DNA of 64,000 nucleotides. It comes from Spirochaetota bacterium (GTDB lineage Bacteria > Spirochaetota > UBA4802 > UBA5550). Of this stretch, positions 31,762-60,193 are shown one piece after another. Under the pieces are notes generated by a model. The model searched no databases. It saw nothing but the letters and a program-made list of their open reading frames with translations, and was not told where the DNA came from. The translations under genes were made by a program, and so were the position numbers. The stretch spans positions 1,408,001-1,472,000 of the forward strand of contig CAXXHB010000003.1 in assembly GCA_963664815.2 (NCBI GenBank), in the 5' to 3' direction. The number at the start of each line of letters is the position of its first letter. Within the stretch, counting starts at the first letter, position 1.

Positions 31762-31842
31762 ATGCGATCGCTATCAGGATTGCCTGAAAATTCAAATAAT
31801 AGACTGCTTATTAAGGCAGATGTCAGAGAGGTAAAAGTATGA
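31762..31842 (+). CDS. 26-aa upstream ORF coupled to amtB
   Basis: aaggagg RBS; MRSLSGLPENSNNRLLIKADVREVKV*; its TGA overlaps the amtB ATG (ATGA). Confidence 0.5.
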   Translation: MRSLSGLPENSNNRLLIKADVREVKV

Positions 31843-33449: not shown

Positions 33450-33788
33450 ATGAAAAAAATTGAAGCAATTATAAGACCTGAAAAACTCGATGCAGTTCTT
33501 GATGAACTTGAAAATGTAGGTTATTCGGGATTGATGATCACCGAAATTAAGGGTCATGGAAAGCAAAAGGGAGTTGTGCAGCAGTGGCGTGGAGAAAGTT
33601 ATAAAGTAAAACTGATCTACAAGGTTAAAATTGAAATAATCGCAAAAGACAATGAAGTTGCGAATATAAAGGATACAATTATTAAAGCAGCAAAAACAGG
33701 TGAGATGGGAGACGGCAAGATTTTTATTTATTCAATTGAGGAAGCTGTTAAAATCAGGACAGGTGAAACAGGAGACAATACTCTCTGA
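33450..33788 (+). CDS. glnK: PII nitrogen regulatory protein
   Basis: MKKIEAIIRP, GHGKQKG, Tyr51 and TGEMGDGKIF motifs; linked to amtB. Confidence 0.93.
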   Translation: MKKIEAIIRPEKLDAVLDELENVGYSGLMITEIKGHGKQKGVVQQWRGESYKVKLIYKVKIEIIAKDNEVANIKDTIIKAAKTGEMGDGKIFIYSIEEAVKIRTGETGDNTL

Positions 33789-34021: not shown

Positions 34022-35554
34022 ATGGATCTGATAAACGACAGACAGAGTGGTTTGCTGGAAAAAATTGGAAGAATTTTTATCGAGGATAACGGCGATATTA
34101 AAATACTTATGTCCAATGTGTTTAAACTCATTGTAACCTATTACAATATTGAACGCGGAATGATAAGCATATATCACAAGGAGGAGGGTGAGATATGTGT
34201 TGATATATATCATGGATACACTGAGGAAGAGGTTGCAAGGGGGGTATACAGACCGGGAGAGGGAATAATCGGTACTGTTATTAAAACCGGAAATCCTTAT
34301 ATTGTAATGGATATAATGAATGAACCGAAGTTTCTTAACAGGACAGGTGCTGACAGAAATACAACAGCTAACAAGATTTCATTTATTTGTGTCCCTATTA
34401 AACTGAATTCAGCGGTTATTGGTACAATTTCTGTTGATATTATTAATAATTTCGGAAGAGATCTCGCCGAAGAATACCATGCCCTTACTACTGTATCTAT
34501 TATGATTGCACAGGCGGTTAACGGCAGAATTGAATCAGTTTTAAGAGAGAAAATGCTTAAAGATGAGAATGAACTTCTCCGTAAAAAAATATCGATCAAT
34601 AGTGTCCAGGGGAAACTGTTGGGAACCTCCAGTGAGATGAAAGAAGTATATGAAAAAATCATTATGGTATCGGGGACTGACACAACTGTGCTCATTACGG
34701 GTGAGAGCGGGACAGGGAAGGAGCTTATTGCTGATGCCATACAAAGAAATAGTAAGCGATACGGTGGTCCGTTTGTAAAAGTAAATGTTGCATCATTGCC
34801 GAAGAATCTTATTGAGACTGAACTTTTCGGTTATGAAAAGGGGGCATTTACAGGTGCTGATAAGATGAAAAAGGGGAGATTTGAGCTGGCCCATGGGGGG
34901 ACGATTTTCCTTGATGAGATAGGTGACCTGGATATTTCTTTACAGGTTCATCTTTTAAGGGTTTTACAGGAAAAAAGTATCGATAGAGTGGGGGGAAATG
35001 CGCCGGTTCCAGTTGACGTAAGGGTTATTGCCGCTACTAACCAGAACCTTGAAGAAAAGATTAAAAATAATGAGTTCAGGGAGGATCTCTATTACAGGCT
35101 CAATGTTTTTCCAATACAATCACCTAAATTGCGGGACAGAAGATCTGATATTGTTCTGCTGGCGGATCACTTTCTTGAAATTTATAATTCAAGAGCGGAA
35201 AAAAAGATAAGCAGGATAAGTACGGATACAATTGATCTTCTTGTCGCGTATCACTGGCCGGGGAACGTAAGAGAGCTGGAGAATTGTATCGAACGGGCAG
35301 TAATTCTATGCAATGAGGATGTTATAAGAAATTATCATCTTCCTCCATCTCTTCAGATATTTAACGATAAAAACGGATCAGGGACTCTTGAAGAGAGGAC
35401 TAACATGTTTGAAAAGGAACTTATTATTGATGCCTTAAAAGTATCAAATGGTAATGTTTCAAATGCATCGAAAAAACTCGGAACAACAAAAAGAATACTC
35501 GGTTATAAAATGGATAAGCTTGGAATTGACTATAAAATTTTCAGAAATCACTGA
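34022..35554 (+). CDS. NifA-like GAF-AAA+-Fis sigma54 activator
   Basis: GAF domain ([16 protein letters not shown]); [20 protein letters not shown] and WPGNVREL motifs; C-terminal HTH. Confidence 0.93.
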
Positions 35555-35977: not shown

Positions 35978-36424
35978 ATGAATATAACAGTCGTTAGGAC
36001 ATTGAAATTGTTTGTTATGTATTGTTCCTCCTCTTTCAGTTCTGAAGAATTGTCTGTCGCGATAAAGATGGATGAAGGTGATGAACTCAGACTGATCGGG
36101 CTTCCATGTTCAGGGAAGGTTGACCTTCTTTACCTTTTAAAAGCATTTGAGAAGGGGGCAGACGGTCTGGTAATACTCACATGCCCGAAAAATGAATGCC
36201 GTCATCTGGAGGGTAATCTCCGGGCGTTGCGAAGGGCTGACAGTGTAAGCTCAATACTCGATGAAACAGGGCTTGGTAATGACAGAATAACCGTATTACA
36301 GTTGAAAGAGGACGGAATTGACGGCATAGTGTCGGAGATTGCTGCGTTTGCAGGCAGCCTGAGGCCGTTAGCCTTTAAAAATTCCGGTTCGTCTGCAGTT
36401 GATGCAACAGCTGTTTCAAATTAG
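35978..36424 (+). CDS. Divergent MvhD/FlpD-like [2Fe-2S] protein
   Basis: LPCSGKVD...AFEKGADG...TCPKNECRHLEGN. Confidence 0.85.
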   Translation: MNITVVRTLKLFVMYCSSSFSSEELSVAIKMDEGDELRLIGLPCSGKVDLLYLLKAFEKGADGLVILTCPKNECRHLEGNLRALRRADSVSSILDETGLGNDRITVLQLKEDGIDGIVSEIAAFAGSLRPLAFKNSGSSAVDATAVSN

Positions 36425-36519
36425 GTAGTTTTTAACTGCTTGTGTGTTCTGAATCCGGGTGAGGCCCGGCTGGTATTTGCAAATATTTAGAAGATATAAA
36501 AAATTCTGGTGATTATATT

Positions 36520-37437
36520 ATGAAAAAAGAGAAAAATTTCGCGGATCAGATAAGGGACAAAGATTTTATTGTAACAGCAGAATACCTTCCGCGTGCTGAA
36601 ACAGATCCGGCGAATATTAAAACAATAATTGACTGCCTGAGAGAGGTACCATCAGCGGTAAACGTTTCGGATAACCCGTTTGGTGTGGCAATGTCAAGTT
36701 TTGCAGCATCAATTCACCTTATCAATGCAGGAATTGAACCTGTACTTCAGATCGTCACAAGAGACAGGAACAGGATTGCAATACAGTCTGATATTCTGGG
36801 AGCGTCATCTCTCGGGATAAGAAATATGCTTTGTCTTTCAGGGTATCATCAGGTGCTTACAGACAATCCTGAATCAGCAAATGTTTATGATATTGACTCA
36901 ACACAGCTCCTGGCAATTGTGGAGAATCTGAGGATGAAGGGAGAGCTTCTGAACGGCGCAAAGATAAATGGGCCGTTTAATATGACTACTGGCGCCGTTG
37001 CAAATCCTTTTATGACACCGGTTGAACTTAACGTGCTGAGAGTTTCACAAAAGGCTGAGGCCGGGGCGGTTTTTTTTCAGACCCATCCCGTTTTTGATGT
37101 TGAGAAATTCAGTTTATGGCTTACTGCAGTAAAAGAATCTGGTGTTGATGAAAAAACCGCGATACTTGCCGGTGTGCTCCCGCTTGAAAGCGTTGAAGAG
37201 GCTGAATCTTTAAGACTAAAATATACTGATTTCAATATACCTCAATCCGTTATCGATCGCCTGAAATCGGCGGGAAGCGCAGAAGCACAGAAAAAGGAAG
37301 GAATTGCAGTCTGCACGGAAATTATATCAAAGGTAAAAAATATGAGCGGCCTCAGAGGAATACATCTTCTTACGGGCGGCAAAGAAAAACTGATACCCGA
37401 GATTCTTGGAGTATCCGGTCTGTCCGGAAAAATATAG
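36520..37437 (+). CDS. metF: Methylenetetrahydrofolate reductase-like flavoprotein (MetFV type, divergent)
   Basis: VTAEYLP, AVNVSDNP, IEPVLQIVTRDRNRIAIQSDILGA and KAEAGA motifs. Confidence 0.88.
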   Translation: MKKEKNFADQIRDKDFIVTAEYLPRAETDPANIKTIIDCLREVPSAVNVSDNPFGVAMSSFAASIHLINAGIEPVLQIVTRDRNRIAIQSDILGASSLGIRNMLCLSGYHQVLTDNPESANVYDIDSTQLLAIVENLRMKGELLNGAKINGPFNMTTGAVANPFMTPVELNVLRVSQKAEAGAVFFQTHPVFDVEKFSLWLTAVKESGVDEKTAILAGVLPLESVEEAESLRLKYTDFNIPQSVIDRLKSAGSAEAQKKEGIAVCTEIISKVKNMSGLRGIHLLTGGKEKLIPEILGVSGLSGKI

Positions 37438-37457: not shown

Positions 37458-38864
37458 ATGCCGGAAAAATATCACATTGAAACAAATCCGGTCCCTCCGC
37501 GACGTCCGAGGACAGGTAAATACGGTATTATTGACTGGAGAGAAGATTGTGCAAGGTGCCATAATTGTGTAAAGAAAGCATGTGTTTATGACAGGCACAG
37601 GGATGAAATTAAATATATCAGAAATATGGATGATGTTGATGCACTTTTTTTTGACTGCATGGGATGCTTTTCCTGTGTGCAGGAGTGTACTAAAAACCTT
37701 TTAAGGCTTACCATAAACCCTGAGTATGAGAAACTAGGGAATGATTACTGGACTCCACAGATTATCCAGACTACATGGCTGCAGGCTGAAACTGCGAAGA
37801 TCCCTGTTTCGGGTGCAGGATATGGCGGAAGATTTTCCGGTTATGGTTTTGATTCCATGTGGACCGACATGTCAGAGATAGTAAGGCCAACGAGAGACGG
37901 GATTCACGGGCGTGAATATATAAGTACTTCTGCAGACATAGGCAGGAAAACATCATTTCTTGTGATGAAGGATGGAGAACTTTCAACGGATATCCCTCCA
38001 TTAATATCAACTCCAATGCCGCTGATAATTGATATGATGCCTGAAGAATATTCTCTGGAAATTCTGGAACCATTGATGATGGAAACTGCATATAGAACTG
38101 ATCTGACAGCTGTTATTGATTCAGGAAGATGGTCTTTTAAAAATAATTTCAGCGAGAAGTATCTCCCGCATGTAGCATTTTATTTCGCTGCCGGTTCGGA
38201 ACTCCTTCCTGCGGATATTATACGTAAAACAAAAATGGTGGAGATTGAAAATTCCGGCGATATTAAACGCCGGATAATGGAACTCAAAGAGATCAGTGCG
38301 GACATAGTAGTGTGTGTAAGGATTAAATTAGATGAAAACGGCATTAGCCGGGCAGTTGAACTTTCCGAGCAGGGTATTGAAGCACTGCATATTATAGCAG
38401 ATATGAACGGAAAACAGTATGGCACAGGTTCTCCGTTATTTATAAAAGATATGATACGTCAGATTCATAAATCGCTGATTGAAAGCGGCAGACGTGATGA
38501 TATTACAATAATTTCAGGTGGCGGAATAGCCCTTCCGGAACATATGGTTAAGGGAATTATATGCGGAACTGATCTTGTATCAATAGAACTTCCGCTTTTA
38601 ATTGCAATGGAATGCCATCTGTGTGGGGTTTGCACCGGAGAGAAAAAATGTCCCGCGAAAATCAGGGAAGTTGACATTGAGTATGGCGCTGGCCGGATGA
38701 CTAACCTGATTGCAGCGTGGCATGACCAGATGGTTGAACTTATGGGAGCCATGGGCATCAGAGATGCAAGACGTCTACGCGGTGATGTGGGGCGTGCCAT
38801 GTTTTTTGAACAGATGGAGGAGGAAAGCTTTGGGAGAATTTTTGGTAAACGGAAGCATGCTTGA
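37458..38864 (+). CDS. Degenerate glutamate synthase FMN-domain paralog with N-terminal ferredoxin
   Basis: CARCHNCVKKAC and CMGCFSCVQEC clusters; ISGGGIA...CHLCGVC...CP tail; MSxG and AQGAKPG motifs absent. Confidence 0.8.
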   Translation: MPEKYHIETNPVPPRRPRTGKYGIIDWREDCARCHNCVKKACVYDRHRDEIKYIRNMDDVDALFFDCMGCFSCVQECTKNLLRLTINPEYEKLGNDYWTPQIIQTTWLQAETAKIPVSGAGYGGRFSGYGFDSMWTDMSEIVRPTRDGIHGREYISTSADIGRKTSFLVMKDGELSTDIPPLISTPMPLIIDMMPEEYSLEILEPLMMETAYRTDLTAVIDSGRWSFKNNFSEKYLPHVAFYFAAGSELLPADIIRKTKMVEIENSGDIKRRIMELKEISADIVVCVRIKLDENGISRAVELSEQGIEALHIIADMNGKQYGTGSPLFIKDMIRQIHKSLIESGRRDDITIISGGGIALPEHMVKGIICGTDLVSIELPLLIAMECHLCGVCTGEKKCPAKIREVDIEYGAGRMTNLIAAWHDQMVELMGAMGIRDARRLRGDVGRAMFFEQMEEESFGRIFGKRKHA

Positions 38865-40419
38865 GAAAATAATTCCTGAAAACACGCTTAAAACCAGGAC
38901 TATACAGCATACAGAAGAGCGGGCAATAAATCCAGCTCCTCCAAGATACAGGAATGAGATGGGAAAATATATAACCCTGAGAGATGAAACAAAATGCATA
39001 TTATGCGGAAAATGTGCCGCTGTATGCCCGCAGGGAGTTCATGTATTGAAACCGGGGTACAAGTATTTTGCTGAGCCTAAAAATCACCTCTGTTTTGGTT
39101 TTAAGTGCGAAGAGAAGGGGTGTTACTGTGTTGCCGCCTGCCCGAACGGCGCATTGAAAGTCGAAGTAAATCCCATGATGAAAGTTCTGGGAGACTACAG
39201 GTGGACAGCAGAGATGATACTTGCTACATGGAAAATGGCTGAAAACGGTAAAATTCCATCTGATGATTATGGGTTGGAATATGAAACCGGAAATTCCGGT
39301 GGAGGTTTTGACCGGATAAGATTTAAATTTCCGGAAAAACCGCCGATAGCACTCAGTGCAGAAGATATTGATACTTCACTTGAACTGAACCGGAGAAATG
39401 ACGGCAGGCCAAAAATAAAAATTGATGTTCCGTGGTATGGCGGAGGTATGTCCTTTGGTTCTGTCAGCAACACTACGCAGCTTTCAAAAGCACGAGCGGC
39501 AGTTGCATGGAACACTTTTACCTGTACCGGTGAAGGCGGGTATATGGAGAGGATGAGGCCATACGATGACCATGTTATAACTCAGGTCGCAACGGGTTTA
39601 TTCGGAATCAGGGAAGAGACTATTCAAAGAGTTCCTATAGTGGAGTTTAAATATGCGCAGGGTGCCAAACCTGGACTCGGCGGTCACCTCCTGGGGGATA
39701 AAAACACCCCGGCAGTTGCTATGATGCGGGGAACGGTCGTAGGTATTCCACTTTTCTCTCCATTTCCGTTTCACAGCGTATATTCCATAGAAGATCACAT
39801 GAAACAGATTGACTGGATTAAGCATGTAAACAGGCGGGCGCTGATTTCAAGCAAGGTATCAACTCCTAATGATGTGGATATGGTTGCTGTAGGGAGTTAT
39901 TCTGCAGGCACCCATATTATACATCTTGACGGAGGGTACGGCGGAACAGGAGCAGCTCCGGAAATTGCCAAAAAGAATATAGCAATGCCGATAGAATATG
40001 CTATTCCGAAAGTTCATAATTTTCTTGTAGCGGAAGGAGCAAGGGAGGGAGTAACACTGATCGCAAGCGGAGGTATCCGTAATCCCTATGATATGGCCAA
40101 GGCAATTGCACTTGGAGCAGATGGAGTTGTTATAGGTACAATGGAGATGGTGGCGCTCGGGTGCGTAAGATGCGGAAGATGTTCCGCAGGCCGTGGTTGT
40201 CCAAGAAGCATAGCTACTACCGATAAAAAACTTGCACCCAAGATAGAACTCGAATGGGGAGCCCAGAGGCTTATTAATACTTACAATGCATGGAGAGACG
40301 AACTTATAAGAATTCTTCAGAGGCTTGGACTGGGAAGCGTAGCTGCCCTGAGGGGCAGATCAGATCTTCTCATGCATCTTGATTATACCAATGACGTGGA
40401 GTATAACCATGAAAAATGA
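38857..40419 (+). CDS. Glutamate synthase FMN/Fe-S subunit (archaeal-type GltB2) with ferredoxin
   Basis: CILCGKCAAVCP, GGMSFGS, TGEGG, QVATGLFG, EFKYAQGAKPGLGGHL, ASGGIR and CVRCGRC...CP motifs; start at ATG 38857. Confidence 0.93.
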   Translation: MLEKIIPENTLKTRTIQHTEERAINPAPPRYRNEMGKYITLRDETKCILCGKCAAVCPQGVHVLKPGYKYFAEPKNHLCFGFKCEEKGCYCVAACPNGALKVEVNPMMKVLGDYRWTAEMILATWKMAENGKIPSDDYGLEYETGNSGGGFDRIRFKFPEKPPIALSAEDIDTSLELNRRNDGRPKIKIDVPWYGGGMSFGSVSNTTQLSKARAAVAWNTFTCTGEGGYMERMRPYDDHVITQVATGLFGIREETIQRVPIVEFKYAQGAKPGLGGHLLGDKNTPAVAMMRGTVVGIPLFSPFPFHSVYSIEDHMKQIDWIKHVNRRALISSKVSTPNDVDMVAVGSYSAGTHIIHLDGGYGGTGAAPEIAKKNIAMPIEYAIPKVHNFLVAEGAREGVTLIASGGIRNPYDMAKAIALGADGVVIGTMEMVALGCVRCGRCSAGRGCPRSIATTDKKLAPKIELEWGAQRLINTYNAWRDELIRILQRLGLGSVAALRGRSDLLMHLDYTNDVEYNHEK

Positions 40420-43093
40420 CACGGTGGACAGATTAATCGAATCAAAGGGACGGCTGCTTGCAAATGTCGAATTCCCTTCTATTGTCAGAAAAGGTGAAGA
40501 AGAGGGTGGATGCGGTGTTGTAGGTTTCTGCTGCAGCGAACCCGTTGCAGGAAAACATATTTATGAACCTTCAAAGCAGATGCACAACCGGGGTAATGGC
40601 AAGGGTGGCGGTATTGCGGCTGTAGGTTTTATACCCGAACAGATGAATGTCAGCAGGGATATACTTGAAGACTGCTATATGCTGCATATAGCTTTTCTTG
40701 AAGATAATGTAAAGAGTGATGTCGAGAATGAGTTTATTAACCCGTATTTTAACGTGGCGGCTTCAGCCATGCTCGATAAGGTCGATGACTGGACAACAAT
40801 ACCGGGACTTGAAGTGAAACCTCCCGATGTCTGCAGATATTTTGTCCGCGTAAAAAATGATGTTCTTGCAGGGTTTATAGCTGAAAACAGGCTGGAAGGA
40901 ATAGACAGCAGGGAAGCAGAGGATGAGTTTCTGAACCAGAACAGTTTTAAACTGAATCAGGTATATTATGCGGCTCATGGTGATAAAAGGGCGTTTGTGC
41001 TCTCTCATGGGCGGAATATAATGATTCTTAAGGTTGTAGGTTTTGCCGAGGCGATTGTTGATTATTATAAGATAAGAGAGCTTAAGGCTCATACATGGAT
41101 TGCACATCAGCGCTTCCCTACCAAGGGACGGGTATGGCATCCTGCAGGAGCGCATCCATTCACGGGAATAAATATGGCTCTTGTACACAACGGAGACTTC
41201 GCGAATTATCATTCAGTAACAGAGCACCTTCTTCAGAGAAACATATATCCGCAGTTTCTGACTGACACTGAGGTTTCGGCCCTGTTGTTTGATCTGATGA
41301 ACAGGACATATCATTATTCACTGGAACATATTATTGAAGCGATGGCCCCTACCTCTGAGCTTGACTTTGACAGGCTGCCTGAGAATAAAAAGAAATTATA
41401 CAGGGCAATACAGGCAACGCATATACACGGTTCGCCCGATGGTCCGTGGTTCTTCATTATTACGAGAAATGTCCCTGAAAAGAAACAGTTTCAGCTTCTT
41501 GGGATTACTGATACTGCTATGCTTCGTCCGCAGGTTTTTGCATTCTGTGACGGTGAGGTTCAGGTTGGACTGATAGCTTCAGAAAAACAGGCAATCGATG
41601 CAACTCTTGTAAGTCTGTCGAAAGATGATCCCAGGATCTGTCCTGTTGCAGAAAAGTACTGGAATGCACGCGGTGGAAGCCATACAGACGGTGGCGCTTT
41701 TATTTTTAATATTTCTGAAGTATCTGGTAAGATGAGAATTGAATGCACAGATAAATTTGGTAAACCGGTTTCACTTCCCGGGAACGGGGAGGTATGTGAT
41801 TTTATATCTGAAAAATATCTTTCACATAAGCTGAAAGACGATGTCGTGAATTATATCAGGCAGTATAACGATAATAATCCTTACGGGCTTTACAGTTATA
41901 TCCGTGATAATATACCTTTTTGGTCATATGATGATATCCGCGCGGCTCTGAGGATGATTACAGATATGGCTTCAGATAATTCAGGTATTGAGAGAGCTGT
42001 ATCGGTATTAACTTTATTAAATGATCTTAAATATCCGGTCGGAAAAAAGAAAAGAAGCAACTTAATACATCTTATAAGAATGGAACTTACGAAGATGTTT
42101 AAAAAACTGCCATATCTTGATGATAAGACTGTATCAGACGGGAACAGTTACAGGCTTATTGATCTTGATAAAAGAGATACGCTTCGCGGTCCTGAGCAGA
42201 ACGAATCTGTTCTTGTAATTAATGCATATAACTTTCCTCCTGAAGGCGTACTGAGCGATGCATCGCTGCTTATGGATGCGTATATGAAAGGATGGAAAAA
42301 GTTCATTTCATTCGGATGTACGGGACAGAGATATATAGGGAATGGTCTGGGCCCGGATACCGATGATGTGGTAATAGACGTTTATGACAGCTGCGGCGAT
42401 TATCTTGCTTCTGGAATTGACGGCCTTACAATAAAGGTTCATAATAATGCGCAGGATCAGCTGGGGCAGATAATAAAGAGAGGAAAGCTTGTAATCTACG
42501 GCGATGTAGGACAGACTTTTCTCTACGGCGCGAAGGGCGGAGACATTTACGTGATGGGTAACGCAGCAGGGCGTCCGCTGATAAATTCTGTCGGGAGGCC
42601 AAGAGTAATAATTAATGGCACATGCCTCGACTTTCTGGGTGAATCATTTATGGCTGGAGACCCTCATAAAGAAGGTGGGTTTGTCGTGCTGAATGGTACA
42701 AAGTTTGATGATGAAGGGAAGGTGCAGCTGCTCGATGAACCTTATCCCGGAAGTAATATTTTTTCTCTTGCAACAGGTGGAGCTGTATATGTCCGGGATC
42801 CGCATAAAACGCTTGTTGATCAGCAGCTTAACGGTGGTGTAATTGAATCGATAAATAAAAAAGACTGGGAACTTATTCTTCCATATCTCGAGGAGAATCA
42901 GCGTCTTTTCAATATCAGGTTAGACGAATTATTAACTGTTAACGGTGCTGTTAAAAACCCGTTAAAAGTTTATAGAAAAGTTATCCCCGCATCGGCAGCA
43001 AAGCGAGCGGATACCGATACAGATGATCTTTTTGATGATGAATTTACCGAAGAGGAAATATTTTTTAAAAAGGAGCCGGTGACTATCAGCTGA
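40409..43093 (+). CDS. Glutamate synthase GATase (GltB1) plus GXGXG (GltB3) fusion
   Basis: EEEGG-CGVVG Ntn cysteine, MHNRGNG, AHQRFPT, HPF, HNGDFANY and TDTE motifs; C-terminal GDVGQTFLYGAKGG / GNAAGR / GESFMAG beta-helix; start at ATG 40409. Confidence 0.92.
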   Translation: MKNDTVDRLIESKGRLLANVEFPSIVRKGEEEGGCGVVGFCCSEPVAGKHIYEPSKQMHNRGNGKGGGIAAVGFIPEQMNVSRDILEDCYMLHIAFLEDNVKSDVENEFINPYFNVAASAMLDKVDDWTTIPGLEVKPPDVCRYFVRVKNDVLAGFIAENRLEGIDSREAEDEFLNQNSFKLNQVYYAAHGDKRAFVLSHGRNIMILKVVGFAEAIVDYYKIRELKAHTWIAHQRFPTKGRVWHPAGAHPFTGINMALVHNGDFANYHSVTEHLLQRNIYPQFLTDTEVSALLFDLMNRTYHYSLEHIIEAMAPTSELDFDRLPENKKKLYRAIQATHIHGSPDGPWFFIITRNVPEKKQFQLLGITDTAMLRPQVFAFCDGEVQVGLIASEKQAIDATLVSLSKDDPRICPVAEKYWNARGGSHTDGGAFIFNISEVSGKMRIECTDKFGKPVSLPGNGEVCDFISEKYLSHKLKDDVVNYIRQYNDNNPYGLYSYIRDNIPFWSYDDIRAALRMITDMASDNSGIERAVSVLTLLNDLKYPVGKKKRSNLIHLIRMELTKMFKKLPYLDDKTVSDGNSYRLIDLDKRDTLRGPEQNESVLVINAYNFPPEGVLSDASLLMDAYMKGWKKFISFGCTGQRYIGNGLGPDTDDVVIDVYDSCGDYLASGIDGLTIKVHNNAQDQLGQIIKRGKLVIYGDVGQTFLYGAKGGDIYVMGNAAGRPLINSVGRPRVIINGTCLDFLGESFMAGDPHKEGGFVVLNGTKFDDEGKVQLLDEPYPGSNIFSLATGGAVYVRDPHKTLVDQQLNGGVIESINKKDWELILPYLEENQRLFNIRLDELLTVNGAVKNPLKVYRKVIPASAAKRADTDTDDLFDDEFTEEEIFFKKEPVTIS

Positions 43094-43118: not shown

Positions 43119-43682
43119 ATGACAATAATTATAAAGAGTGAAAATAAAGGGAAGAGTTTTTTCGAAAAGATAAAGACCGGGTCGGGTGTGGACATCAGTC
43201 TTTGCCTCCAGTGCAGGAGATGTTCAAATGGCTGTCCTGCAGCTGCTTTTACAGGAGCATCCCCTTCGGAAATAATAAGAAAGCTTCAGCTTGGTATGAG
43301 TAAGGAAATTCTTGATGATGATTTTATATGGGTCTGCGCTTCATGCGAAACCTGTTTTGCAAGATGCCCGATGAAGATCAATATGGCGGCAGTGATCGAT
43401 GAACTTAGAATTTCCGCCGGTGATTTAAAGTCAAAGACCCCGGCGGGGAATATGCCTATGATGAACAGGTTTCTTCTCGGTACTATGAGATCATTCGGAA
43501 GAACATATGATCTCGGAGCCATGATTCTTTACAAGGCCGGGACTTTCTCGTATTTCAGGGATGCGGGAAAATTTCCTATGATCCTTAAAAAGGGTAAAAT
43601 AGCGCTTTTTCCTTCATCAGCTGGTGATAAAAAAAGTGTAAAGAATATATTTAAAAATATTGAAAAGATGAGGAAACAGTAA
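43119..43682 (+). CDS. hdrC: Heterodisulfide reductase subunit C
   Basis: CLQCRRCSNGCP and IWVCASCETCFARCP motifs. Confidence 0.92.
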   Translation: MTIIIKSENKGKSFFEKIKTGSGVDISLCLQCRRCSNGCPAAAFTGASPSEIIRKLQLGMSKEILDDDFIWVCASCETCFARCPMKINMAAVIDELRISAGDLKSKTPAGNMPMMNRFLLGTMRSFGRTYDLGAMILYKAGTFSYFRDAGKFPMILKKGKIALFPSSAGDKKSVKNIFKNIEKMRKQ

Positions 43683-43683
43683 G

Positions 43684-44556
43684 ATGAAATACGCGTACTA
43701 TCCGGGATGTTCTGCCGAATCGACGGCACGCGATCAGTATACATCAACAATGGCTGTTGCGCGCTCTCTGGGGATTGAGCTTGTTGAACCGGAGGGATGG
43801 ACTTGTTGCGGTTCAACGCCTGCCCACCAGGTAAATCACGATCTGGCTGTTTCATTATCAGTGGCAAATCTGCAGAAGGTGCAGGATCTTGGACTCGATA
43901 TGGTGGTAAGCTGCGCATCATGTTACAGCAGGATGAAAGCTGCAAATCATGCAGTTGCTTCAGATCCGGCAGTAAGAAAACGGATTTCAGAGATTACCGG
44001 AAAAGACTATGACGGATCTGTCCGTGTGAGGCATTTTATTGAAATATTACTTGAAGACATCGGTTTGATGCAGTTTAAAAGAATGCTTACAGGCTCTCTT
44101 GACGGAATGAAGGTTGCTTCATATTATGGATGCCTGCTTGTGCGTCCCAATGAGATAACGGGTTTTGACGATCCGGAAAATCCGGTTTATATGGATAAGA
44201 TTATAAATGCCATGGGTGGAGATAGCATTGACTGGCCGCATAAAACAGAGTGCTGTGGCGCGTCACTTACCCTTACAAGACCCGGGATAGTTTTAAAACT
44301 GTCTGATTCAATTATTGCAATGGCGGAGGGATACGGGGCGGAATGCATTTCTGTTGCATGCCCGATGTGCCAGATAAACCTTGATATGAGACAGGGAGAT
44401 ATAAAAAAAGAAACAGGAAAAGACTACAGGATGCCTGTAATGTATATAACACAGCTTATCGGGCTATGTCTTGGAATTCCGGGGAATGACCTTGGAATCG
44501 GCAGGCTGATAAATTCGCCCGAAAAGATTATGACAGGAGTAGTTAATAATGCATAA
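43684..44556 (+). CDS. hdrB: Heterodisulfide reductase subunit B
   Basis: YYPGC, TCCG, CASC, YYGC, ECCG and CPMC (two CCG domains). Confidence 0.95.
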   Translation: MKYAYYPGCSAESTARDQYTSTMAVARSLGIELVEPEGWTCCGSTPAHQVNHDLAVSLSVANLQKVQDLGLDMVVSCASCYSRMKAANHAVASDPAVRKRISEITGKDYDGSVRVRHFIEILLEDIGLMQFKRMLTGSLDGMKVASYYGCLLVRPNEITGFDDPENPVYMDKIINAMGGDSIDWPHKTECCGASLTLTRPGIVLKLSDSIIAMAEGYGAECISVACPMCQINLDMRQGDIKKETGKDYRMPVMYITQLIGLCLGIPGNDLGIGRLINSPEKIMTGVVNNA

Positions 44557-47500
44557 GAGTAATAATAAAAAAACCGGAGCGGTAATTGTTCAGGGGGGCG
44601 GTATTGCAGGAGTGCAGGCATCTCTTGATCTTGCGAACTCGGGATTTAAAGTACATCTGGTTGAAAGCAGTTCAGCGATTGGCGGAATGATGGCTCATCT
44701 TGACAAAACATTCCCTACCGGTGATTGCGCAACATGTATTGTTTCTCCAAAACTGGTTGAATGTTCAAGAAACCTTAACATAGAAATACATACACTCTCC
44801 GAGCTTGAATCTCTTGAAGGGGAGGCTGGAAACTTCAAGGCAGGGATAAGAAAATCACCAAGGTATATAGACGAAAAAATCTGCAATGACTGCGGTGATT
44901 GCACAAAGGCCTGCCCCGTTGAAATCAGCGACAGGTTTAACCGGGGTCTCGGGAAAAGAAAGGCAATTCAGAAATATAACGCGCAGGCTATACCTAACAA
45001 ACCGGCAATAATGAAGCTGGGACACGCGCCGTGTAAGGTTACATGTCCTGCAAATATAAATGTTCAGGGTTATATTCAGCTTATAAAAAAGGGTGAATAT
45101 ATAAAAGCGGTGAATATGATAAGGGAAAGAAATCCCCTGTCAGCTGTATGCGGGCGTGTCTGTCCTGCGCCATGCGAGAATGCATGCACAAGATCAAAAT
45201 TTGATTCCGCTGTTGCAATAAGGCAGCTCAAGCGTTTTGCCTCTGATCAGGAGATGATGCTGGTGAAATCAGGAAAAATACAGCTTCCTGAAGAGAGAAG
45301 ACCCTCATCAAATGCGGAAAAAGTTGCTGTTATAGGTGCAGGTCCGGCAGGGCTCACATGTGCTGCCGATCTTGCAGACAGGGGGTTTGCTGTTACGGTT
45401 TTTGAAACAGGAGAGCGTGCAGGCGGGATGCTTATATGGGGCATTCCCGAATACCGGCTCCCCAGGAATATCCTTGATTATGAAGTTGAACTTATAAGGC
45501 GGAAAGGTGTTGAATTTGTTTTCAACTATCGTGCAGGAAGGGATGCGTCGATCAGTGAATTGAAAAGTAAATATGACGCTCTCTTTATAAGCGCCGGTGC
45601 GCATGGAGGGAGACGTTTAGGAGTAGAAGGTGAAGACCTTACAGGAGTTGATTCAGGAGTTGATTTTTTAAGAGAGAACGGCAAAGAAGGGGGCAGACCC
45701 CATGTAGGCGAAAATGTTGTAGTAATAGGGGGCGGTAACGTAGCGGTGGATGTAGCCCGTACGGCACTCCGTCTGGGCGCAAAAAATGTACAACTTGTTG
45801 CTCTTGAAAAATATGGGGAGATGCCGGCATATGAGGATGAAATAAAGGCTTCTGTTGAAGAAGGTATTGTCATAAAAAATGGATGGGGACCGGAGAAAAT
45901 TACAGGTAAAGGATCGGTTTCCGGTATTGAACTTAAAGAATGCGTCAGGGTCTTTGATGATAAAGGGAAATTCAGCCCGATATATAATAATGAAAATCTG
46001 ATAACATTAAAAGCTGACCAGATTATAGTTGCCATAGGGCAGATGGTTGAAAAGGATCTTCTTGAAAACAGCTGTGTAGATACGGAATTCGGATGCATAT
46101 CAGCTGACCCGGTTACACTTGAAACTACAGAAAAGGGCGTTTTTGCAGGCGGAGACAATGTATCCGGGCCTGCAAGTGTCATCGAAGCCGTTGCTGCAGG
46201 AAAAAGGGCTGCTGAATCTATAGAAAGGTTTTTAAACGGAAAAGATATGTTTACTGACCGTTTCGAATCAACGGTTAAACCGGTTCCGGAAAATATGCTT
46301 CCTTCTGCATCTGATGTAATTAAAAAAGAACGCTCTGTGGCAGATGAACTTCCGGTAAGTGAGAGAATACTGAATTTCAAGGAAGTGGAATCGGCATTTA
46401 CAGCTGAGCAGGCTGCGGCAGAGGCGGAGAGATGCCTTAACTGTGCCCTCTGTTCGGAGTGCAATGAATGTGTTTCCGCCTGTGAAAAACAGGCTGTACG
46501 GCACAATATGAAGGATGAGTACATTGAGCTTGATGCGGGATCGGTAATAATGACTGCCGGTTTTAAGGAGTTCGACGCATCAGAGAAAGGTGAGTTCGGA
46601 TATGGCAGATATAAAAATGTCGTTACGAATGTTCAGTTTGAAAGAATGCTCTCTGCGGCAGGACCATCCGGAGGGCATGTACTGAGACTTTCCGATGGGG
46701 AAGAGGCAAAGCGCATCGCCTTTATACAGTGTGTCGGTTCAAGGGATTCCAAATGCGGCAACGAATACTGCTCATCAATATGCTGCATGGCAACAACCAA
46801 GCAGGCGCTTGTTGCAGATGAACATATAGAAGGGATGAATGCGTCTATATTCTATATGGATATACGTGCTTTTGGAAAGGACTTCGACCGTTATTATGAA
46901 AGGGCAAGAAGTAAAGAAAATATAAAGTATATAAAAGGGATCCCTTCACGTACAGTGCAGGTTCCCGGATCTATGGATATACGTCTTAAATATATGGATG
47001 AGAATTTCAATTATATTGAAAGTGATTTTGACCTTGTGGTGCTTGCGGTTGGGATGGAGCCTCAGGATAAAATTGAAGAAAAGATGTCCGGAATAGGAGT
47101 TAAGCTAAACGAGTATGGATTCGCAGGGAGAAGCCGTCTCTATCCTCTTCAGACATCACGCGACGGGGTCTTCATCGCAGGGGCATTTAATGAACCGAAA
47201 GATATCCCGGAGACTGTTACGCAGGCAAGTGCGGCTGCGTCAATGGCTATGGAGATACTTAACCAGGCAAGGAATACACTCACGGCAGGAAAGAAGTACC
47301 CGGCAGAACATGATACTACGGATGAAAAACCGAGAATCGGTGTTTTTGTATGTCACTGCGGGATCAATATAGCTTCAACAGTTGATGTGGAAAAAGTGAC
47401 GGAAGCAGTAGCGGGTGAACCGGGTGTAATAGTGGCATCTCATACAATGTATACATGTTCCGATTCCAGCTTAACAAATATTAAAAAATGTATTATAGAA

Positions 47501-49036
47501 AACAGGCTCAACAGGGTTGTTGTGGCCTCATGTACACCAAGAACGCATGAAGACCTTTTCAGGGATACTCTCCGTGAGGCCGGACTTAACCAGTACCTTT
47601 TTGAACTGGCCAATATACGGGACCAATGTTCATGGGTTCACAGCGGAGAACCTGAACCGGCAACTGAAAAGGCTGTTCAGCTTGTAAAGATGTCAATAGC
47701 ACGTTCGAGAATGCTGAAACCACTGACAGGCGAATCATTACTGATAAACCAGAACGGACTTGTAATAGGGGGTGGACTGAGCGGGATGACTGCAGCTCTG
47801 TCGCTTGCGGAGCAGGGATTTAAAGTTACGCTTGTTGAGAAGTCAGAGGTACTGGGGGGAAATATGCTGAATATTTACAGTACTCTTGAGAATGAAGATA
47901 TAGGCGGTTTTCTGGGTGAAATGGTTTCAAAAGTTGGAAATCATAAAAACATTCAGCTTTACCTGAACAGCGAGGTGGTTAAATTAAATGGCCATATCGG
48001 AAAATTTACTGTTACCATAAGTCAGAAGGGAGTAACTAACGGTAAAGGTATTGATATCAACTGCGGTGCGATTGTTGTCGCCACTGGGGGTAAACCTGCA
48101 GAAGTAAAGGATTTCTCTTATGGAAAATCAGAGAATATATTAACACAGCTAGATCTGGAGAAAATGATTCATGAAAACAGTTTTTCATCTTTAAATTCTT
48201 CTGGCAGCAGCAAAAATATTGTAATGATTCAATGTGCGGGCTCACGCAACAATGAAAGGGAATACTGCAGCAGGATATGCTGCTCCATGGCAGTGAAAAA
48301 TGCTCTGAAAATAAAAAAAGGGAATCCTGATGTGAATGTTTATATTTTGTATCGTGATATAAGGACATATGGCTTCAGGGAAAAATATTATCTTGAGGCA
48401 AGGAAGTCGGGTGTAGTTTTTATAAGGTATGATGAAAAGAATCCTCCGGTAGTGTCGGAAGATGAAAAACTTTTTGTAACGCTTAAAAGCCCCGATATTC
48501 GCGATGTCGTTATGATTGAAGCTGATAATCTGATACTGAGTACCGGGATAGATGCACATGCTGAGAACAGGGCGGTTTCTGACATGCTTAAGCTTCAACT
48601 CAACCAGGATGGTTTTTTTCTTGAGGCACACGTTAAACTGCGACCTGTAGACTTTGCGACAGAGGGGATATATCTCTGCGGTCTTGCTCATTCACCGAAA
48701 ATGATTGATGAGAACATATCGCAGGCAAAGGCAGCAGCATCACGCGCTGCGACTATTCTTTCAAAGAACAGCCTTGAAGTTGGTGCACAGGTGTCGGAGG
48801 TAGACCAGAATAAATGTATATCTTGTATGACCTGTGTTCATGCATGCCCGTATGGAGCTCCGTCGGCAAATATTGACGGTAAGGCTGAAATAGCCGCAGC
48901 AAAATGCATGGGTTGCGGCATATGTGCATCGGAATGTCCCGCAAGGGCTATACAGCTTAACCATTTTGAGACAAAACAGTTCAACATTATGCTAGAGGAT
49001 CTGATAGAAAACTATATAGCAGTACATCGTAATTAA
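44549..49036 (+). CDS. hdrA: Large HdrA (HdrL-type): HdrA with inserted GltD-like NAD(P)H domain plus a second HdrA module
   Basis: GGGIAG...LDKTFPTGDCATC; insert APCKVTCP...CGRVCPAPCE...GAGPAG...GGGNVA; IQCVGSRD..YCSSICC; second module RIGVFVCHCG...NIRDQCSWVH...QCAGSR..YCSRICC; C-terminal ferredoxin. Confidence 0.93.
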   Translation: MHKSNNKKTGAVIVQGGGIAGVQASLDLANSGFKVHLVESSSAIGGMMAHLDKTFPTGDCATCIVSPKLVECSRNLNIEIHTLSELESLEGEAGNFKAGIRKSPRYIDEKICNDCGDCTKACPVEISDRFNRGLGKRKAIQKYNAQAIPNKPAIMKLGHAPCKVTCPANINVQGYIQLIKKGEYIKAVNMIRERNPLSAVCGRVCPAPCENACTRSKFDSAVAIRQLKRFASDQEMMLVKSGKIQLPEERRPSSNAEKVAVIGAGPAGLTCAADLADRGFAVTVFETGERAGGMLIWGIPEYRLPRNILDYEVELIRRKGVEFVFNYRAGRDASISELKSKYDALFISAGAHGGRRLGVEGEDLTGVDSGVDFLRENGKEGGRPHVGENVVVIGGGNVAVDVARTALRLGAKNVQLVALEKYGEMPAYEDEIKASVEEGIVIKNGWGPEKITGKGSVSGIELKECVRVFDDKGKFSPIYNNENLITLKADQIIVAIGQMVEKDLLENSCVDTEFGCISADPVTLETTEKGVFAGGDNVSGPASVIEAVAAGKRAAESIERFLNGKDMFTDRFESTVKPVPENMLPSASDVIKKERSVADELPVSERILNFKEVESAFTAEQAAAEAERCLNCALCSECNECVSACEKQAVRHNMKDEYIELDAGSVIMTAGFKEFDASEKGEFGYGRYKNVVTNVQFERMLSAAGPSGGHVLRLSDGEEAKRIAFIQCVGSRDSKCGNEYCSSICCMATTKQALVADEHIEGMNASIFYMDIRAFGKDFDRYYERARSKENIKYIKGIPSRTVQVPGSMDIRLKYMDENFNYIESDFDLVVLAVGMEPQDKIEEKMSGIGVKLNEYGFAGRSRLYPLQTSRDGVFIAGAFNEPKDIPETVTQASAAASMAMEILNQARNTLTAGKKYPAEHDTTDEKPRIGVFVCHCGINIASTVDVEKVTEAVAGEPGVIVASHTMYTCSDSSLTNIKKCIIENRLNRVVVASCTPRTHEDLFRDTLREAGLNQYLFELANIRDQCSWVHSGEPEPATEKAVQLVKMSIARSRMLKPLTGESLLINQNGLVIGGGLSGMTAALSLAEQGFKVTLVEKSEVLGGNMLNIYSTLENEDIGGFLGEMVSKVGNHKNIQLYLNSEVVKLNGHIGKFTVTISQKGVTNGKGIDINCGAIVVATGGKPAEVKDFSYGKSENILTQLDLEKMIHENSFSSLNSSGSSKNIVMIQCAGSRNNEREYCSRICCSMAVKNALKIKKGNPDVNVYILYRDIRTYGFREKYYLEARKSGVVFIRYDEKNPPVVSEDEKLFVTLKSPDIRDVVMIEADNLILSTGIDAHAENRAVSDMLKLQLNQDGFFLEAHVKLRPVDFATEGIYLCGLAHSPKMIDENISQAKAAASRAATILSKNSLEVGAQVSEVDQNKCISCMTCVHACPYGAPSANIDGKAEIAAAKCMGCGICASECPARAIQLNHFETKQFNIMLEDLIENYIAVHRN

Positions 49037-49050: not shown

Positions 49051-49500
49051 ATGAGTGATAAAAATTTTGAACCTCTGATTATCGCTTTCTGCTGCCAGTA
49101 CTGTTCGTATTCAGCGGCAGACCTTGCGGGTTCCATGAGGCTTCAGTATCCGCCTAATGTAAGAATTGTACGAACTCCCTGTACCGGCAGGCTTGAAGTT
49201 AATTTTTTTATGAAGGCGTTTGAAAAAGGTGCTGATGGAATACTTGTAGCCGGGTGCCTTGAAGGAGGCTGCCATTTTACTGAGGGTAATTTTCTTGCGA
49301 AAGGCAGAGTGGGATATACCCGGACAATACTTCATGAAAGCGGACTTGAAGCTGAACGTATAAAAATGATAAATGTATCGGCGGCAATGGCACGGCCGTT
49401 TGTAGACCATCTGAACGATTTGATTGAAACAGTAAAAAAACTCGGGCCTAATCCTCTTTCGGGTAAGGTCAACAGTGTTAAAGAGGAGATAGAAGTATGA
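49051..49500 (+). CDS. mvhD: MvhD [2Fe-2S] subunit
   Basis: AFCCQYCSYSAADLAG, PCTGR and GADGILVAGC..GGCHF motifs. Confidence 0.95.
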   Translation: MSDKNFEPLIIAFCCQYCSYSAADLAGSMRLQYPPNVRIVRTPCTGRLEVNFFMKAFEKGADGILVAGCLEGGCHFTEGNFLAKGRVGYTRTILHESGLEAERIKMINVSAAMARPFVDHLNDLIETVKKLGPNPLSGKVNSVKEEIEV

Positions 49501-50162
49501 TAGTAGCGCAGAGAAAAAGTATTCCCGAACTCACAGAGATACTTGAGGGGCATAAAAAAATACTTGTACTGGGATGCGGTACATGCGTCACGGTTTGCCT
49601 TGCCGGTGGAGAACGTGAAGTGAGTATTATCTCTTCGGCTCTTAGAATTTCTTCCAGTCTGAAAGGGCTCGGTTTCGAGGTAGAGGAGCTTACAATAGAG
49701 AGACAGTGTGACAATATTTTTATAGAGAAGGCAGCGGAAGCGGTTTCCAGAAATGACGTTGTTCTGTCACTGGGATGCGGCGCGGGCGTACAGGCAATAG
49801 CGGAAAGGTTTGATAAGCCTGTATATGCCGGACTTGACACCGAATTTATCGGAATACTCGAGGAGAGGGCAACCTGGACTGAAAAATGTATATCATGCGG
49901 GAAATGCGTTCTGCATATGTATGGAGGAATATGCCCTGTCACAAGATGTGCAAAGCATATGTTGAACGGGCCCTGCAGCGGTTCCAGGGAAGACAGGTGC
50001 GAGGTGAGACCAGACCGCCCATGTGCATGGCAACTTATTTATCAGAGACTTAAAAAAATTGGTGAACTTGATAAACTTAAACAGATAAAAGCGCCAAAAA
50101 ACTGGAATTACAGCCTTCATGGCGGTTCCAGGGTTATTATTCGCGAGGATCACAGAATATAA
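49497..50162 (+). CDS. metV: MTHFR small Fe-S subunit
   Basis: GCGTCVTVC, CGAGVQ, CISCGKCVL..YGGICPVTRCAK.MLNGPC and CAWQLIY motifs. Confidence 0.93.
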   Translation: MIVAQRKSIPELTEILEGHKKILVLGCGTCVTVCLAGGEREVSIISSALRISSSLKGLGFEVEELTIERQCDNIFIEKAAEAVSRNDVVLSLGCGAGVQAIAERFDKPVYAGLDTEFIGILEERATWTEKCISCGKCVLHMYGGICPVTRCAKHMLNGPCSGSREDRCEVRPDRPCAWQLIYQRLKKIGELDKLKQIKAPKNWNYSLHGGSRVIIREDHRI

Positions 50163-60108: not shown

Positions 60109-60193
60109 GGAGAGGTGTCAGAGTGGCCGATCGTGTCTGACTCGAAATCAGATGTCCTGCAAGGGACCGGGGGTTCAAATCCCTCCCTCTCCG
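60109..60193 (+). tRNA. tRNA-Ser (CGA)
   Basis: GGAGAGGTGTCAGAGTGG...TCTGA CTCGAAA TCAGA, long variable arm, GGTTCAAATCC; CCA not encoded. Confidence 0.95.

Follow-up and report, generated by a model that had tools for sequence, protein, structure and literature searches.

A GltD-like module inserted into the HdrL protein of a glutamate synthase operon from a Spirochaetota bacterium as a probable entry port for NADH

HdrL and the module inserted into it

The stretch of DNA studied here, hereafter called the window, comprises 64,000 nucleotides from a Spirochaetota bacterium (GenBank assembly GCA_963664815.2, contig CAXXHB010000003.1, positions 1,408,001 to 1,472,000 of the forward strand); positions are counted from its first letter. 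It contains a ten-gene operon in which glutamate synthase (glt) genes stand together with genes for heterodisulfide-reductase-type proteins (hdr), MvhD and MetFV. The subject of this report is a module carried by one product of this operon, the 1495-aa HdrA-type protein HdrL. An earlier note on this DNA had described a GltD/SudA-like module inside the ferredoxin region of HdrA at positions 45026 to 46445, and had considered it the beta subunit (GltD) that this glutamate synthase was missing. The module is present as described, occupies residues 160-632, and all the motifs quoted for it are found in the translation; we suggest, however, that it probably serves as an NADH port that belongs to HdrL itself. 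The hdrL gene and its parts are as follows.

44549..49036, + strand: hdrL, an intact open reading frame (ORF) for an HdrA-type protein of 1495 aa
44549..45013, + strand: HdrA core 1, first part (residues 1-155), with a flavin adenine dinucleotide (FAD) Rossmann motif (12-40), the Cys pair C60/C63 and C112/115/118/122
45026..46445, + strand: GltD/NfnB-like module (residues 160-632; Pfam Fer4_20 and Pyr_redox_2)
45800..45811, + strand: nucleotide-specificity position A-L-E-K (residues 418-421), where strand beta-2 of the NAD(P) domain ends
46445..47323, + strand: HdrA core 1, second part (residues 633-925), with C635/638/641/645 and the cluster cysteines C728/741/745/746
47324..49036, + strand: second HdrA unit (residues 926-1495), with an N-terminal domain carrying cluster cysteines, an FAD Rossmann motif (1071-1099) and C1229/1240/1244/1245

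The top NCBIfam match of HdrL is HdrA2 (987 bits, under the cut-off of 1100), and a phmmer comparison with the HdrA protein of Methanothermococcus in the PDB (5odc_A; E 9.5e-179) yields four stretches. HdrL residues 11-155 correspond to HdrA residues 145-289, residues 633-851 to 291-510, residues 926-1099 to 2-175, and residues 1344-1485 to 505-649. An insert of 477 residues (156-632) thus lies between HdrA positions 289 and 291, at a point located between both four-Cys motifs (C112/115/118/122 and C635/638/641/645) of the inserted ferredoxin domain of HdrA. The second HdrA unit, which the earlier note had placed from about position 47327, begins with residue 926 at nucleotide 47324.

Core 1 carries all the HdrA core motifs (the FAD Rossmann motif, the Cys pair, the C...C-x-x-x-C-C motif and the inserted ferredoxin domain), but it has neither the N-terminal domain of HdrA nor its C-terminal ferredoxin domain. 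Both are supplied by the second unit, whose own FAD Rossmann motif starts at residue 1072 and whose C-terminal 2x[4Fe-4S] domain spans residues 1417-1470 in Pfam. This unit, in turn, is devoid of the inserted ferredoxin domain, and in an alignment of residues 1067-1384 the Cys pair beside the flavin is replaced by non-Cys residues. Judged from these motifs, the two HdrA units look complementary, resembling a fused and differentiated HdrA dimer with one complete site. The proposal that two HdrA flavin sites could permit electron bifurcation is weakened because the second unit has neither the Cys/Sec pair nor the inserted ferredoxin domain.

Every cluster cysteine of the window HdrL is conserved in all 31 homologues whose genes are linked to glt genes. 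Residues C60, C112, C115, C118 and C122, as well as the cysteines in the second part of core 1, are conserved in these 31 proteins and in all eight other HdrL proteins (the MetFV-only group described below). C63 is likewise present in 31/31 glt-linked proteins, but only in 4/8 of the others, the remaining four showing an alignment gap; in these four MetFV-only proteins (L018, L019, L020 and one more) the gap is likely to reflect an in-frame stop codon that probably encodes selenocysteine. The PDB entry 9sfi_A prints an X at the second position of the flavin-side Cys pair, and the HdrL proteins of Desulfobacterium autotrophicum have been reported as selenoproteins (PMC2702500).

In the Pfam domain map of the insert, Fer4_20 covers residues 158-236 (E 8.3e-22) and Pyr_redox_2 covers residues 258-551 (E 3e-54), in agreement with the location given in the earlier note. 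Fer4_20 contributes two Cys motifs (C162/C166 and C201/205/209/213), which are followed by an FAD Rossmann motif (259-272), an NAD(P) Rossmann motif (391-404), the sequence A-L-E at residues 418-420, a GG-D motif (530-540) and a closing Cys pair (C629/C632). By these sequence features, residues 160-632 are a complete FAD-, NAD(P)H- and two-[4Fe-4S]-containing module of the GltD/NfnB superfamily. Among the NCBIfam models, PRK12771 ('NAD(P)-binding protein') is matched above its cut-off (540.9 bits versus 516; residues 139-665), and the scores for the NfnB-type model TIGR01316 (332.5 versus 471.75) and the GltD models TIGR01318 (266.8 versus 482.95) and TIGR01317 (230.1 versus 447.7) are all below theirs. 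In the PDB, the best matches are 9bov_A (334.5 bits), 9n5u_A (332.4 bits) and StnC (8oh5_C; 296.4 bits), followed by NfnB (273.6 and 262.1 bits) and GltD (191.5 and 186 bits).

With 8oh5_C, 9bov_A and 9n5u_A, the module can be aligned collinearly, in one piece each time. In NfnB (4ylf_B), on the other hand, residues 9-43 match insert residues 598-633, that is, the C-terminal end of the insert, and the C-x-x-C helix that opens NfnB and GltD closes the insert with C629/C632. In the canonical order, present in the GltD protein of Escherichia coli and in the GltD protein encoded elsewhere in the genome studied here, this helix stands directly before the P-C-x-x-x-C-P motif, an arrangement not found in the insert. 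On this alignment evidence, the insert is of the circularly permuted StnC/PRK12771 type and not an orthologue of GltD. Residues 102-565 of StnC constitute a non-bifurcating input module with NADPH, FAD and two clusters, and the presence of a flavin-side Arg residue is less telling than its geometry, which is what decides bifurcation (PMC10482914); the insert possesses this residue as R303. A Pfam search found no gene in the operon for an NfnA-like (PyrK-like) partner, which takes up the high-potential electron in bifurcating flavoproteins of the NfnB type, and the insert is the only recognizable pyridine-nucleotide module that the operon encodes.

The position that governs nucleotide specificity reads A-L-E-K in the window protein and is aligned with Y-R-R-[T/S] in five solved relatives, with Y-R-R-D in E. 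coli GltD and with Y-R-R-S in the NfnB-like protein of the same genome. E. coli PreT, annotated in RefSeq as a subunit of NAD(+)-dependent dihydropyrimidine dehydrogenase, has A-R-E-E there. In Rossmann folds, an acidic residue at this position favors NAD, and paired arginines bind the 2'-phosphate of NADP. When 39 full-length HdrL proteins were aligned and grouped by gene context rather than by this motif, [S/A/C]-L-E was found in 31/31 glt-linked proteins and Y-R-R-[T/S] in 8/8 MetFV-only proteins. Among 38 further GltD-like matches that cover the site, 33 carry Y-R-R; it is lacking in the other five, namely the GltD protein of the genome studied here (with an indel at this site), L022 and L023 (both C-L-E-Q), L029 and L046. 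The L022 and L023 sequences (3637-5064 and 10106-11530, from a Hyphomicrobiales and a Bacteroidetes metagenome-assembled genome (MAG), respectively) are stand-alone permuted GltD-like proteins. Hence, the module probably prefers NADH, as had been surmised from the replacement of Y-R-R, and this assessment is strengthened because x-L-E occurs in all glt-linked HdrL proteins while the NADPH-type relatives have Y-R-R.

The operon, its conservation and the question of a missing GltD

The ten genes of the operon lie on one strand and are tightly packed, with intergenic gaps between -11 and +25 nt except for 95 nt after mvhD-1, in the order mvhD-metF-gltBA-gltB2-GATase/GXGXG-hdrC-hdrB-hdrL-mvhD-metV. 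Pfam assignments agree for every operon gene. The genes that accompany hdrL, and three genes preceding the operon, are listed here.

31839..33434, + strand: amt (Pfam)
33450..33788, + strand: putative glnK/P-II, a 112-aa ORF judged to be P-II by eye
34022..35554, + strand: sigma-54 activator with a GAF domain (Pfam)
35978..36424, + strand: mvhD-1, first gene of the operon, [2Fe-2S] adaptor of the FlpD family (Pfam FlpD, E 5.4e-23)
36520..37437, + strand: metF-like gene, divergent member of the MTHFR family (Pfam MTHFR, E 3.9e-30)
37458..38864, + strand: gltBA, encoding a partial glutamate-synthase-like barrel with an additional Cys cluster, preceded by a 2x[4Fe-4S] ferredoxin domain
38857..40419, + strand: gltB2, encoding the flavin mononucleotide (FMN; synthase) domain of glutamate synthase, preceded by a 2x[4Fe-4S] ferredoxin domain (Pfam Glu_synthase, E 1.3e-85)
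40409..43093, + strand: fusion of a class-II glutamine amidotransferase with a GXGXG beta-helix, 894 aa (Pfam GATase_6 and GXGXG)
43119..43682, + strand: hdrC, 2x[4Fe-4S] (Pfam Fer4_17/Fer4_8), at a position conserved in related loci
43684..44556, + strand: hdrB, two CCG domains (Pfam CCG, E 1.8e-23, two stretches), overlapping hdrL by 8 nt
49051..49500, + strand: mvhD-2 (Pfam FlpD, E 2.2e-46), beginning 14 nt past hdrL
49497..50162, + strand: metV, MTHFR C-terminal-domain protein (Pfam DUF5981, E 9.9e-36), last gene of the operon

The four cysteines of the MvhD-1 protein are invariant across 29 homologues, and the operon's metF is the lowest-scoring of the three MTHFR copies of the genome (105 bits versus 322.9 and 148.4). 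GltBA matches Pfam Fer4 and Glu_synthase (E 2.5e-13; profile positions 180-368), and the match to the latter is confined to the final half of the profile. GltBA is a strongly conserved protein (65% mean column identity among 30 sequences) with three Cys clusters, whose cysteines are conserved among the 30 homologues, and with a long invariant stretch at residues 116-155; GltBA may replace the 'central domain' of GltB while bearing redox centers. The mechanically called ORF of gltB2 begins at 38710, which would give an overlap of about 155 nt with gltBA; 38857 is the probable start, however, because the homologues that start just past gltBA are 515-519 aa in length. In the amidotransferase fusion, the Gly-Cys-Gly stretch around Cys35 is invariant in 9/9 sequences. 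An mvhD gene directly follows hdrL in all HdrL loci, and MvhD-2 is 45-49% identical to the MvhD proteins encoded next to MetFV-only hdrL genes.

The amt, glnK/P-II and sigma-54 activator genes that precede the operon represent a nitrogen-control neighborhood. A sigma-54-type -24/-12 site with one mismatch is present at 31713-31728 (+), about 110 nt upstream of amt; the whole window has 14 matches to this consensus, fewer than the 28 expected by chance. Upstream of mvhD-1 (35555-35977), there is no match with at most two mismatches, and a sigma-54 promoter in front of this gene was consequently rejected as a candidate, the single-mismatch site being ahead of amt only. A search of sequencing runs yielded five DNA hits, from two studies, and no RNA hit. 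Rfam gives no match within the operon, and scans for promoters and terminators were uninformative; a G+C-rich hairpin of six pairs, five of them G-C, lies at 36455-36469 (+) within the 95-nt gap between mvhD-1 and metF. The G+C content of the operon (0.43-0.445) exceeds that of its surroundings (0.35-0.40), which fits acquisition by transfer. Elsewhere in the window, there are a thiamine pyrophosphate (TPP) riboswitch (4913-5012, -; Rfam RF00059, 70.3 bits), tRNA genes at 22289-22447 (-) and 60109-60193 (+), and two 2-kb bins (2001-4000 and 8001-10000) with a G+C content of 0.50 and 0.49 against 0.33-0.40 around them, in which Rfam found no rRNA or other RNA.

The amidotransferase fusion has more than 7655 database homologues, many of them 65-75% identical; Spirochaetota, Sedimentisphaerales, Verrucomicrobiota and Desulfobacterota are among the sources of those with 65-74% identity. 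When metagenomes were scanned with nine aligned fusion relatives, 537 relatives were obtained, and the best 80 loci, a sample that leans to close relatives, were compared with twelve window proteins. Of the 41 loci that extend 1500 bp or more downstream, 34 have the hdrC/B/L genes there; hdrL is found in 27 of the 31 with at least 6500 bp, and hdrL, mvhD and metV together in 25 of the 28 with at least 7600 bp. On the other side, 49 loci have at least 4600 bp of upstream sequence, 43 of them with metF, gltBA and gltB2, and 45 with mvhD. Hence, the ten-gene order recurs in dozens of metagenome contigs. As these contigs are unrelated, the idea of a Leptospirales-specific merger of two cassettes was rejected. 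The whole operon is retained in three Leptospirales/Spirochaetota genomes with HdrL proteins that are 80-83% identical. In 401 sampled genomes of the phylum, the fusion occurs in 13, the genome studied here included; all 13 belong to the order of this bacterium, within which the distribution by family is patchy (8/39, 3/5 and 1/9).

The seven metagenome loci without hdr genes downstream carry the most distant fusions (56-59% identity), and their layouts vary. The order mvhD-metV-metF-gltBA-gltB2-GATase is present in L130 and L135, and also in the genomes L054 and L055, where it is flanked by NrpR or a sigma-54 regulator; L122 and L128 show mvhD-gltBA-gltB2-GATase, and the upstream sequence of L126, L131 and L133 is too short to judge the layout. 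In the Hdr-free cassettes, gltBA and gltB2 form one ORF of 974-993 aa (L054, 11664-14588, -; L055, 6207-9173, +; L130, 6942-9923; L133, 223-3201). Two variants of the full arrangement are L072, where hdrL directly follows the amidotransferase fusion without hdrCB (12580-12708), and L097, where the operon halves appear in reversed order. In L101 (8345-12667), gltB2 and the amidotransferase fusion are one ORF of 1440 aa.

Whether a GltD protein is missing depends on where one looks. The genome, which is 96.2% complete, has six matches to Fer4_20. A canonical pair, consisting of a 472-aa GltD protein (TIGR01317, 618.6 bits) encoded directly downstream of a 1524-aa GltB protein (C3:4071452-4077444), lies about 2.6 Mb from the operon. 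An nfnA-like gene stands beside an nfnB-like gene (C3:4082334-4084572); the two pairs are within 13 kb of one another (C3:4071452-4084572). Two other Fer4_20 proteins are a 775-aa protein of the 'dicluster near Sec' type, encoded beside an aldehyde oxidoreductase gene, and an 819-aa protein. Since the genome possesses canonical gltBD genes, gltD is absent from the operon only and not from the genome.

The split gltB-like genes are found 1.5-7 kb upstream of hdrL in the same operon, but the same insert is also present in loci without glt genes. Eight full-length HdrL proteins with 45-49% identity from Desulfobacterota MAGs (L017-L020, L028-L030, L032) possess it; their genes are accompanied by hdrCB, mvhD, and metV or metF, and no glt-like match of at least 70 bits was found near them, up to 10 kb on each side. 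In loci of the Desulfobacteraceae type (L026, L027, L031, L035, L036, L040), the insert resides within a single complete HdrA protein. Of the proposal that the module is the missing GltD protein, there remains that it is the only recognizable nucleotide module of the operon. It scores below the GltD cut-offs, is permuted, also occurs in HdrL proteins encoded without glt genes, and belongs to a genome with a canonical gltBD pair elsewhere.

Taken literally, this proposal would have the insert dock on GltB2 as GltD does on GltB and deliver electrons straight to the FMN domain, with the HdrA parts as a scaffold or a side branch. Such a role would agree with an operon without a separate gltD gene, with the linkage of hdrL to glt in 34/41 informative metagenome loci, with the presence of the full set of GltD features (FAD, an NAD(P)H site and two [4Fe-4S] clusters), and with a nucleotide motif that differs precisely in the glt-linked clade. 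However, the position of the insert is identical in HdrL proteins encoded without glt genes, its permuted StnC-type topology ties both chain ends into the ferredoxin domain of HdrA, and GltB2 and GltBA have N-terminal 2x[4Fe-4S] domains of their own, an entry of the archaeal type. Moreover, Hdr-free cassettes keep mvhD beside the glt genes, with or without metVF, which points to a contact with MvhD. We consider a literal beta subunit quite improbable.

The same surveys bear on the view that two enzymes merely share one transcript, namely a Moorella-type HdrL-HdrBC-MvhD-MetFV reductase and an independent, co-regulated ferredoxin-dependent glutamate synthase. Each part does occur alone: HdrL and MetFV are found without glt genes, and glt cassettes are found without hdr genes, three of which (L122, L124, L128) have no metFV genes in the available stretch; the Moorella complex, moreover, has exactly these six Hdr/Mvh/Met subunits (PMC5861303). 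Against this stands the layout of the operon, with metF and metV at opposite ends and the glt and hdr genes between them, an interleaving that is kept in dozens of contigs. MetFV also stays with the glt genes where hdr genes are lacking (L054, L055, L130, L132, L135), and the nucleotide motif has changed along with glt linkage. A catabolic MTHFR is not to be expected in an organism that has canonical gltBD genes, a better-scoring MTHFR and no acetyl-CoA synthase, for which there was no match in the 96.2%-complete genome. The genome encodes no MvhD protein outside the operon, only MvhD-1 and MvhD-2, and together with the lack of acetyl-CoA synthase and the better-scoring canonical MTHFR, this makes an acetogenic role of MetFV/Hdr unlikely here. 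Two independent enzymes are, in our view, a doubtful explanation.

A proposed route for electrons

We suggest, with a probability of about 60%, that residues 160-632 are the NADH port of HdrL, an entry site that is functionally GltD-like but intrinsic to HdrL, and that probably does not dock on GltB2 in the way GltD does on GltB. The recurring ten-gene order makes it most likely that the module is the nucleotide port of one composite complex. Since entry and exit of the insert's chain both lie at the distal cluster motif of the insert, this cluster should adjoin the two clusters of the ferredoxin domain of HdrA. NADH, rather than NADPH, would reduce the FAD of the module, and single electrons would then pass through its two clusters and those of the ferredoxin domain to the flavin of core 1, which alone of the two cores bears the complete HdrA signature. 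From there, one branch would lead to HdrC and HdrB. The other would use the N- and C-terminal cluster domains of the second unit together with both MvhD proteins, and would end at MetFV and at the ferredoxin domains that GltBA and GltB2 carry.

That MvhD is the adaptor through which glutamate synthase is reached is suggested by the Hdr-free cassettes, which keep mvhD beside the glt genes. A structure prediction for a complex of GltBA with MvhD-1 gave a median score of 0.45 (runs: 0.57, 0.45, 0.44) against 0.00 for the best control; the runs share at least 92% of their contacts, and the pLDDT value of the partner is at least 74. The mark used to grade such predictions is attained by 116/157 solved complexes and 2/215 mismatched pairs, and at a score of at most 0.60 by 18/157 solved complexes and both of the passing mismatches. 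The prediction was made with custom-made alignments, for which these counts are valid only approximately.

As a more far-reaching possibility, which we put forward tentatively from the gene content, the insert might be the NADH port of a nitrogen-regulated supercomplex of HdrL, HdrBC, two MvhD proteins, MetFV and a four-part glutamate synthase, with bifurcation at core 1. By analogy with related systems, electron bifurcation by the complex is possible. If so, NADH would reduce 2-oxoglutarate plus glutamine (and methylene-tetrahydrofolate) in a strongly exergonic reaction that drives the production of low-potential electrons, nitrogen assimilation would conserve energy, and the change from Y-R-R to x-L-E would be a switch from NADPH to NADH at the recruitment of HdrL to glutamate synthase.

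Electrons might also flow the other way, with the module as an outlet where NAD+ is reduced by electrons from ferredoxin or methyl-tetrahydrofolate, or by confurcation; alternatively, the module might have a relaxed specificity for NADH and NADPH. Wagner et al. are said to have regarded, in 2017, the inserted ferredoxin domain of methanogen HdrA as the ferredoxin branch. A nucleotide module placed at this branch could sit on an output branch, and the retained G-x-G-x-x-A fingerprint would suit an outlet or a relaxed specificity. The two acceptors of the operon, glutamate synthase and methylene-tetrahydrofolate, are more positive than NADH. The potential of methylene-tetrahydrofolate is given as -200 mV, and a ferredoxin site is ascribed to HdrA (PMC5861303); GltD-like modules operate reversibly in Nfn and Stn (PMC10482914). 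With both operon-encoded acceptors more positive than NADH, however, NADH as the donor is the simpler assumption, and the nitrogen-control neighborhood fits an assimilatory reductase, so that an outlet or a relaxed specificity appears very improbable to us.

Several observations weigh against the module as the NADH port of such a complex. The prediction of GltBA with MvhD-1 reaches only the grade 'weak support', and Hdr-free cassettes exist that do without the insert. Flavoproteins of the MetF family, such as E. coli MetF, can oxidize NAD(P)H themselves, and the insert need therefore not be the sole entry site. In a quick tree of GltD-like modules, in which deep placements are uncertain owing to long branches (PreT, GltD, several stand-alone proteins), the 31 glt-linked inserts share one side of a branch with 99% support with L022, L023, PreT and L046_1; the change from Y-R-R to x-L-E is thus probably one inherited event and not 31 independent ones. 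The G-x-G-x-x-A fingerprint of the NAD(P) Rossmann fold is unchanged in all HdrL proteins, and it is treated as an NADP-type sign in a paper on archaeal HdrA proteins (PMC12054007). Finally, the MetFV-HdrABC-MvhD complex of Moorella is NADH-dependent (PMC5861303), and a Y-R-R motif in its HdrA protein would sink the argument drawn from the motif. A Eubacteriales MAG (G406) was considered as a stand-in for Moorella and rejected; it has hdrC-hdrB-hdrA with the insert (Y-R-R-T), and no metFV genes within 16 kb.

Comparison with known systems

As the earlier note had stated, fusions of the HdrL type are already known and have been published for Desulfobacterota (PMC2702500, PMC5947623), so that the HdrA-GltD fusion itself is not new. 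Three points go further than the published accounts: the insert is permuted and of the StnC type, with a precisely located insertion point; the second HdrA unit is complementary and degenerate; and the nucleotide site has changed in step with glt linkage. A literature search, which did not extend to paywalled papers and supplements, revealed no account of a glutamate synthase linked to Hdr. Nitrogen enters biomass chiefly by way of glutamate synthase, and the known electron sources of this enzyme are NADPH (via GltD), NADH, ferredoxin and F420. In the operon studied here, the job of glutamate synthase is apparently done via a heterodisulfide-reductase-type flavoprotein, a part of the machinery with which anaerobes split electron pairs, and this arrangement is conserved across many uncultured anaerobes. 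If the complex is real, it would represent a new class of glutamate synthase and may reveal the long-sought second partner of the Moorella-type MetFV-Hdr enzymes; the change at the nucleotide site that tracks glt linkage provides a concrete and cheaply testable prediction.

With the GltD proteins of Azospirillum brasilense (6s6s_G/2vdc_G), E. coli and the genome studied here, the insert shares the superfamily fold, the set of cofactors and the role as entry site for the reductant. It reaches, however, only 186-191 bits with solved GltD proteins, stays below both NCBIfam cut-offs for GltD and is permuted in its topology; in the quick tree, the GltD proteins of E. coli and of the genome studied here pair up separately on long branches. 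E. coli PreT is a GltD-like protein with A-R-E where the window protein has A-L-E, and it groups with the glt-linked inserts at the branch with 99% support. Unlike the insert, PreT stands alone and shows the canonical, non-permuted order, and its long branch may render this grouping an artefact.

The HdrL protein of D. autotrophicum was described by Strittmatter et al. in 2009 (PMC2702500), HdrL has been found in the proteome of S. fumaroxidans (PMC5947623), and a 'type III HdrA' into which a GltD domain is inserted is reported from methane-metabolizing archaea (PMC12054007). The window protein has the two features that mark HdrL and type III HdrA proteins, a GltD-like NAD(P)H/FAD domain inside HdrA and an adjoining mvhD gene. 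It differs in its tandem build (core 1 with the insert, N-terminal domain, core 2, C-terminal ferredoxin domain), whereas the Desulfobacteraceae-type protein is one complete HdrA; it is also encoded together with a split glutamate synthase and has x-L-E in place of Y-R-R.

The MetFV-HdrABC-MvhD complex of Moorella thermoacetica (Mock et al. 2014) has, according to a review, an HdrA subunit with two FAD molecules and uses NADH as donor, and its second acceptor is given as not known (PMC5861303). The genes for all six of its subunits (MetF, MetV, HdrA, HdrB, HdrC, MvhD) are present in the window operon, which, in contrast to Moorella, interleaves three glutamate-synthase genes and a second mvhD gene with them and has metF at its front. 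The organism studied here, furthermore, has no acetyl-CoA synthase.

The closest likeness to the insert is offered by StnC from Sporomusa ovata (8oh5_C) and by NfnA of the Bfu-type NfnABC enzymes (9bov_A, 9n5u_A), which have the same permuted order of cluster motifs and match it with 296-334 bits. These proteins contain entry modules with FAD, a nucleotide site and two [4Fe-4S] clusters that are fused into a larger iron-sulfur protein (PMC10482914, PMC11829005). Their modules bind NADPH, carry Y-R-R and are fused to NuoG-like domains, whereas the insert of the window protein sits in HdrA.

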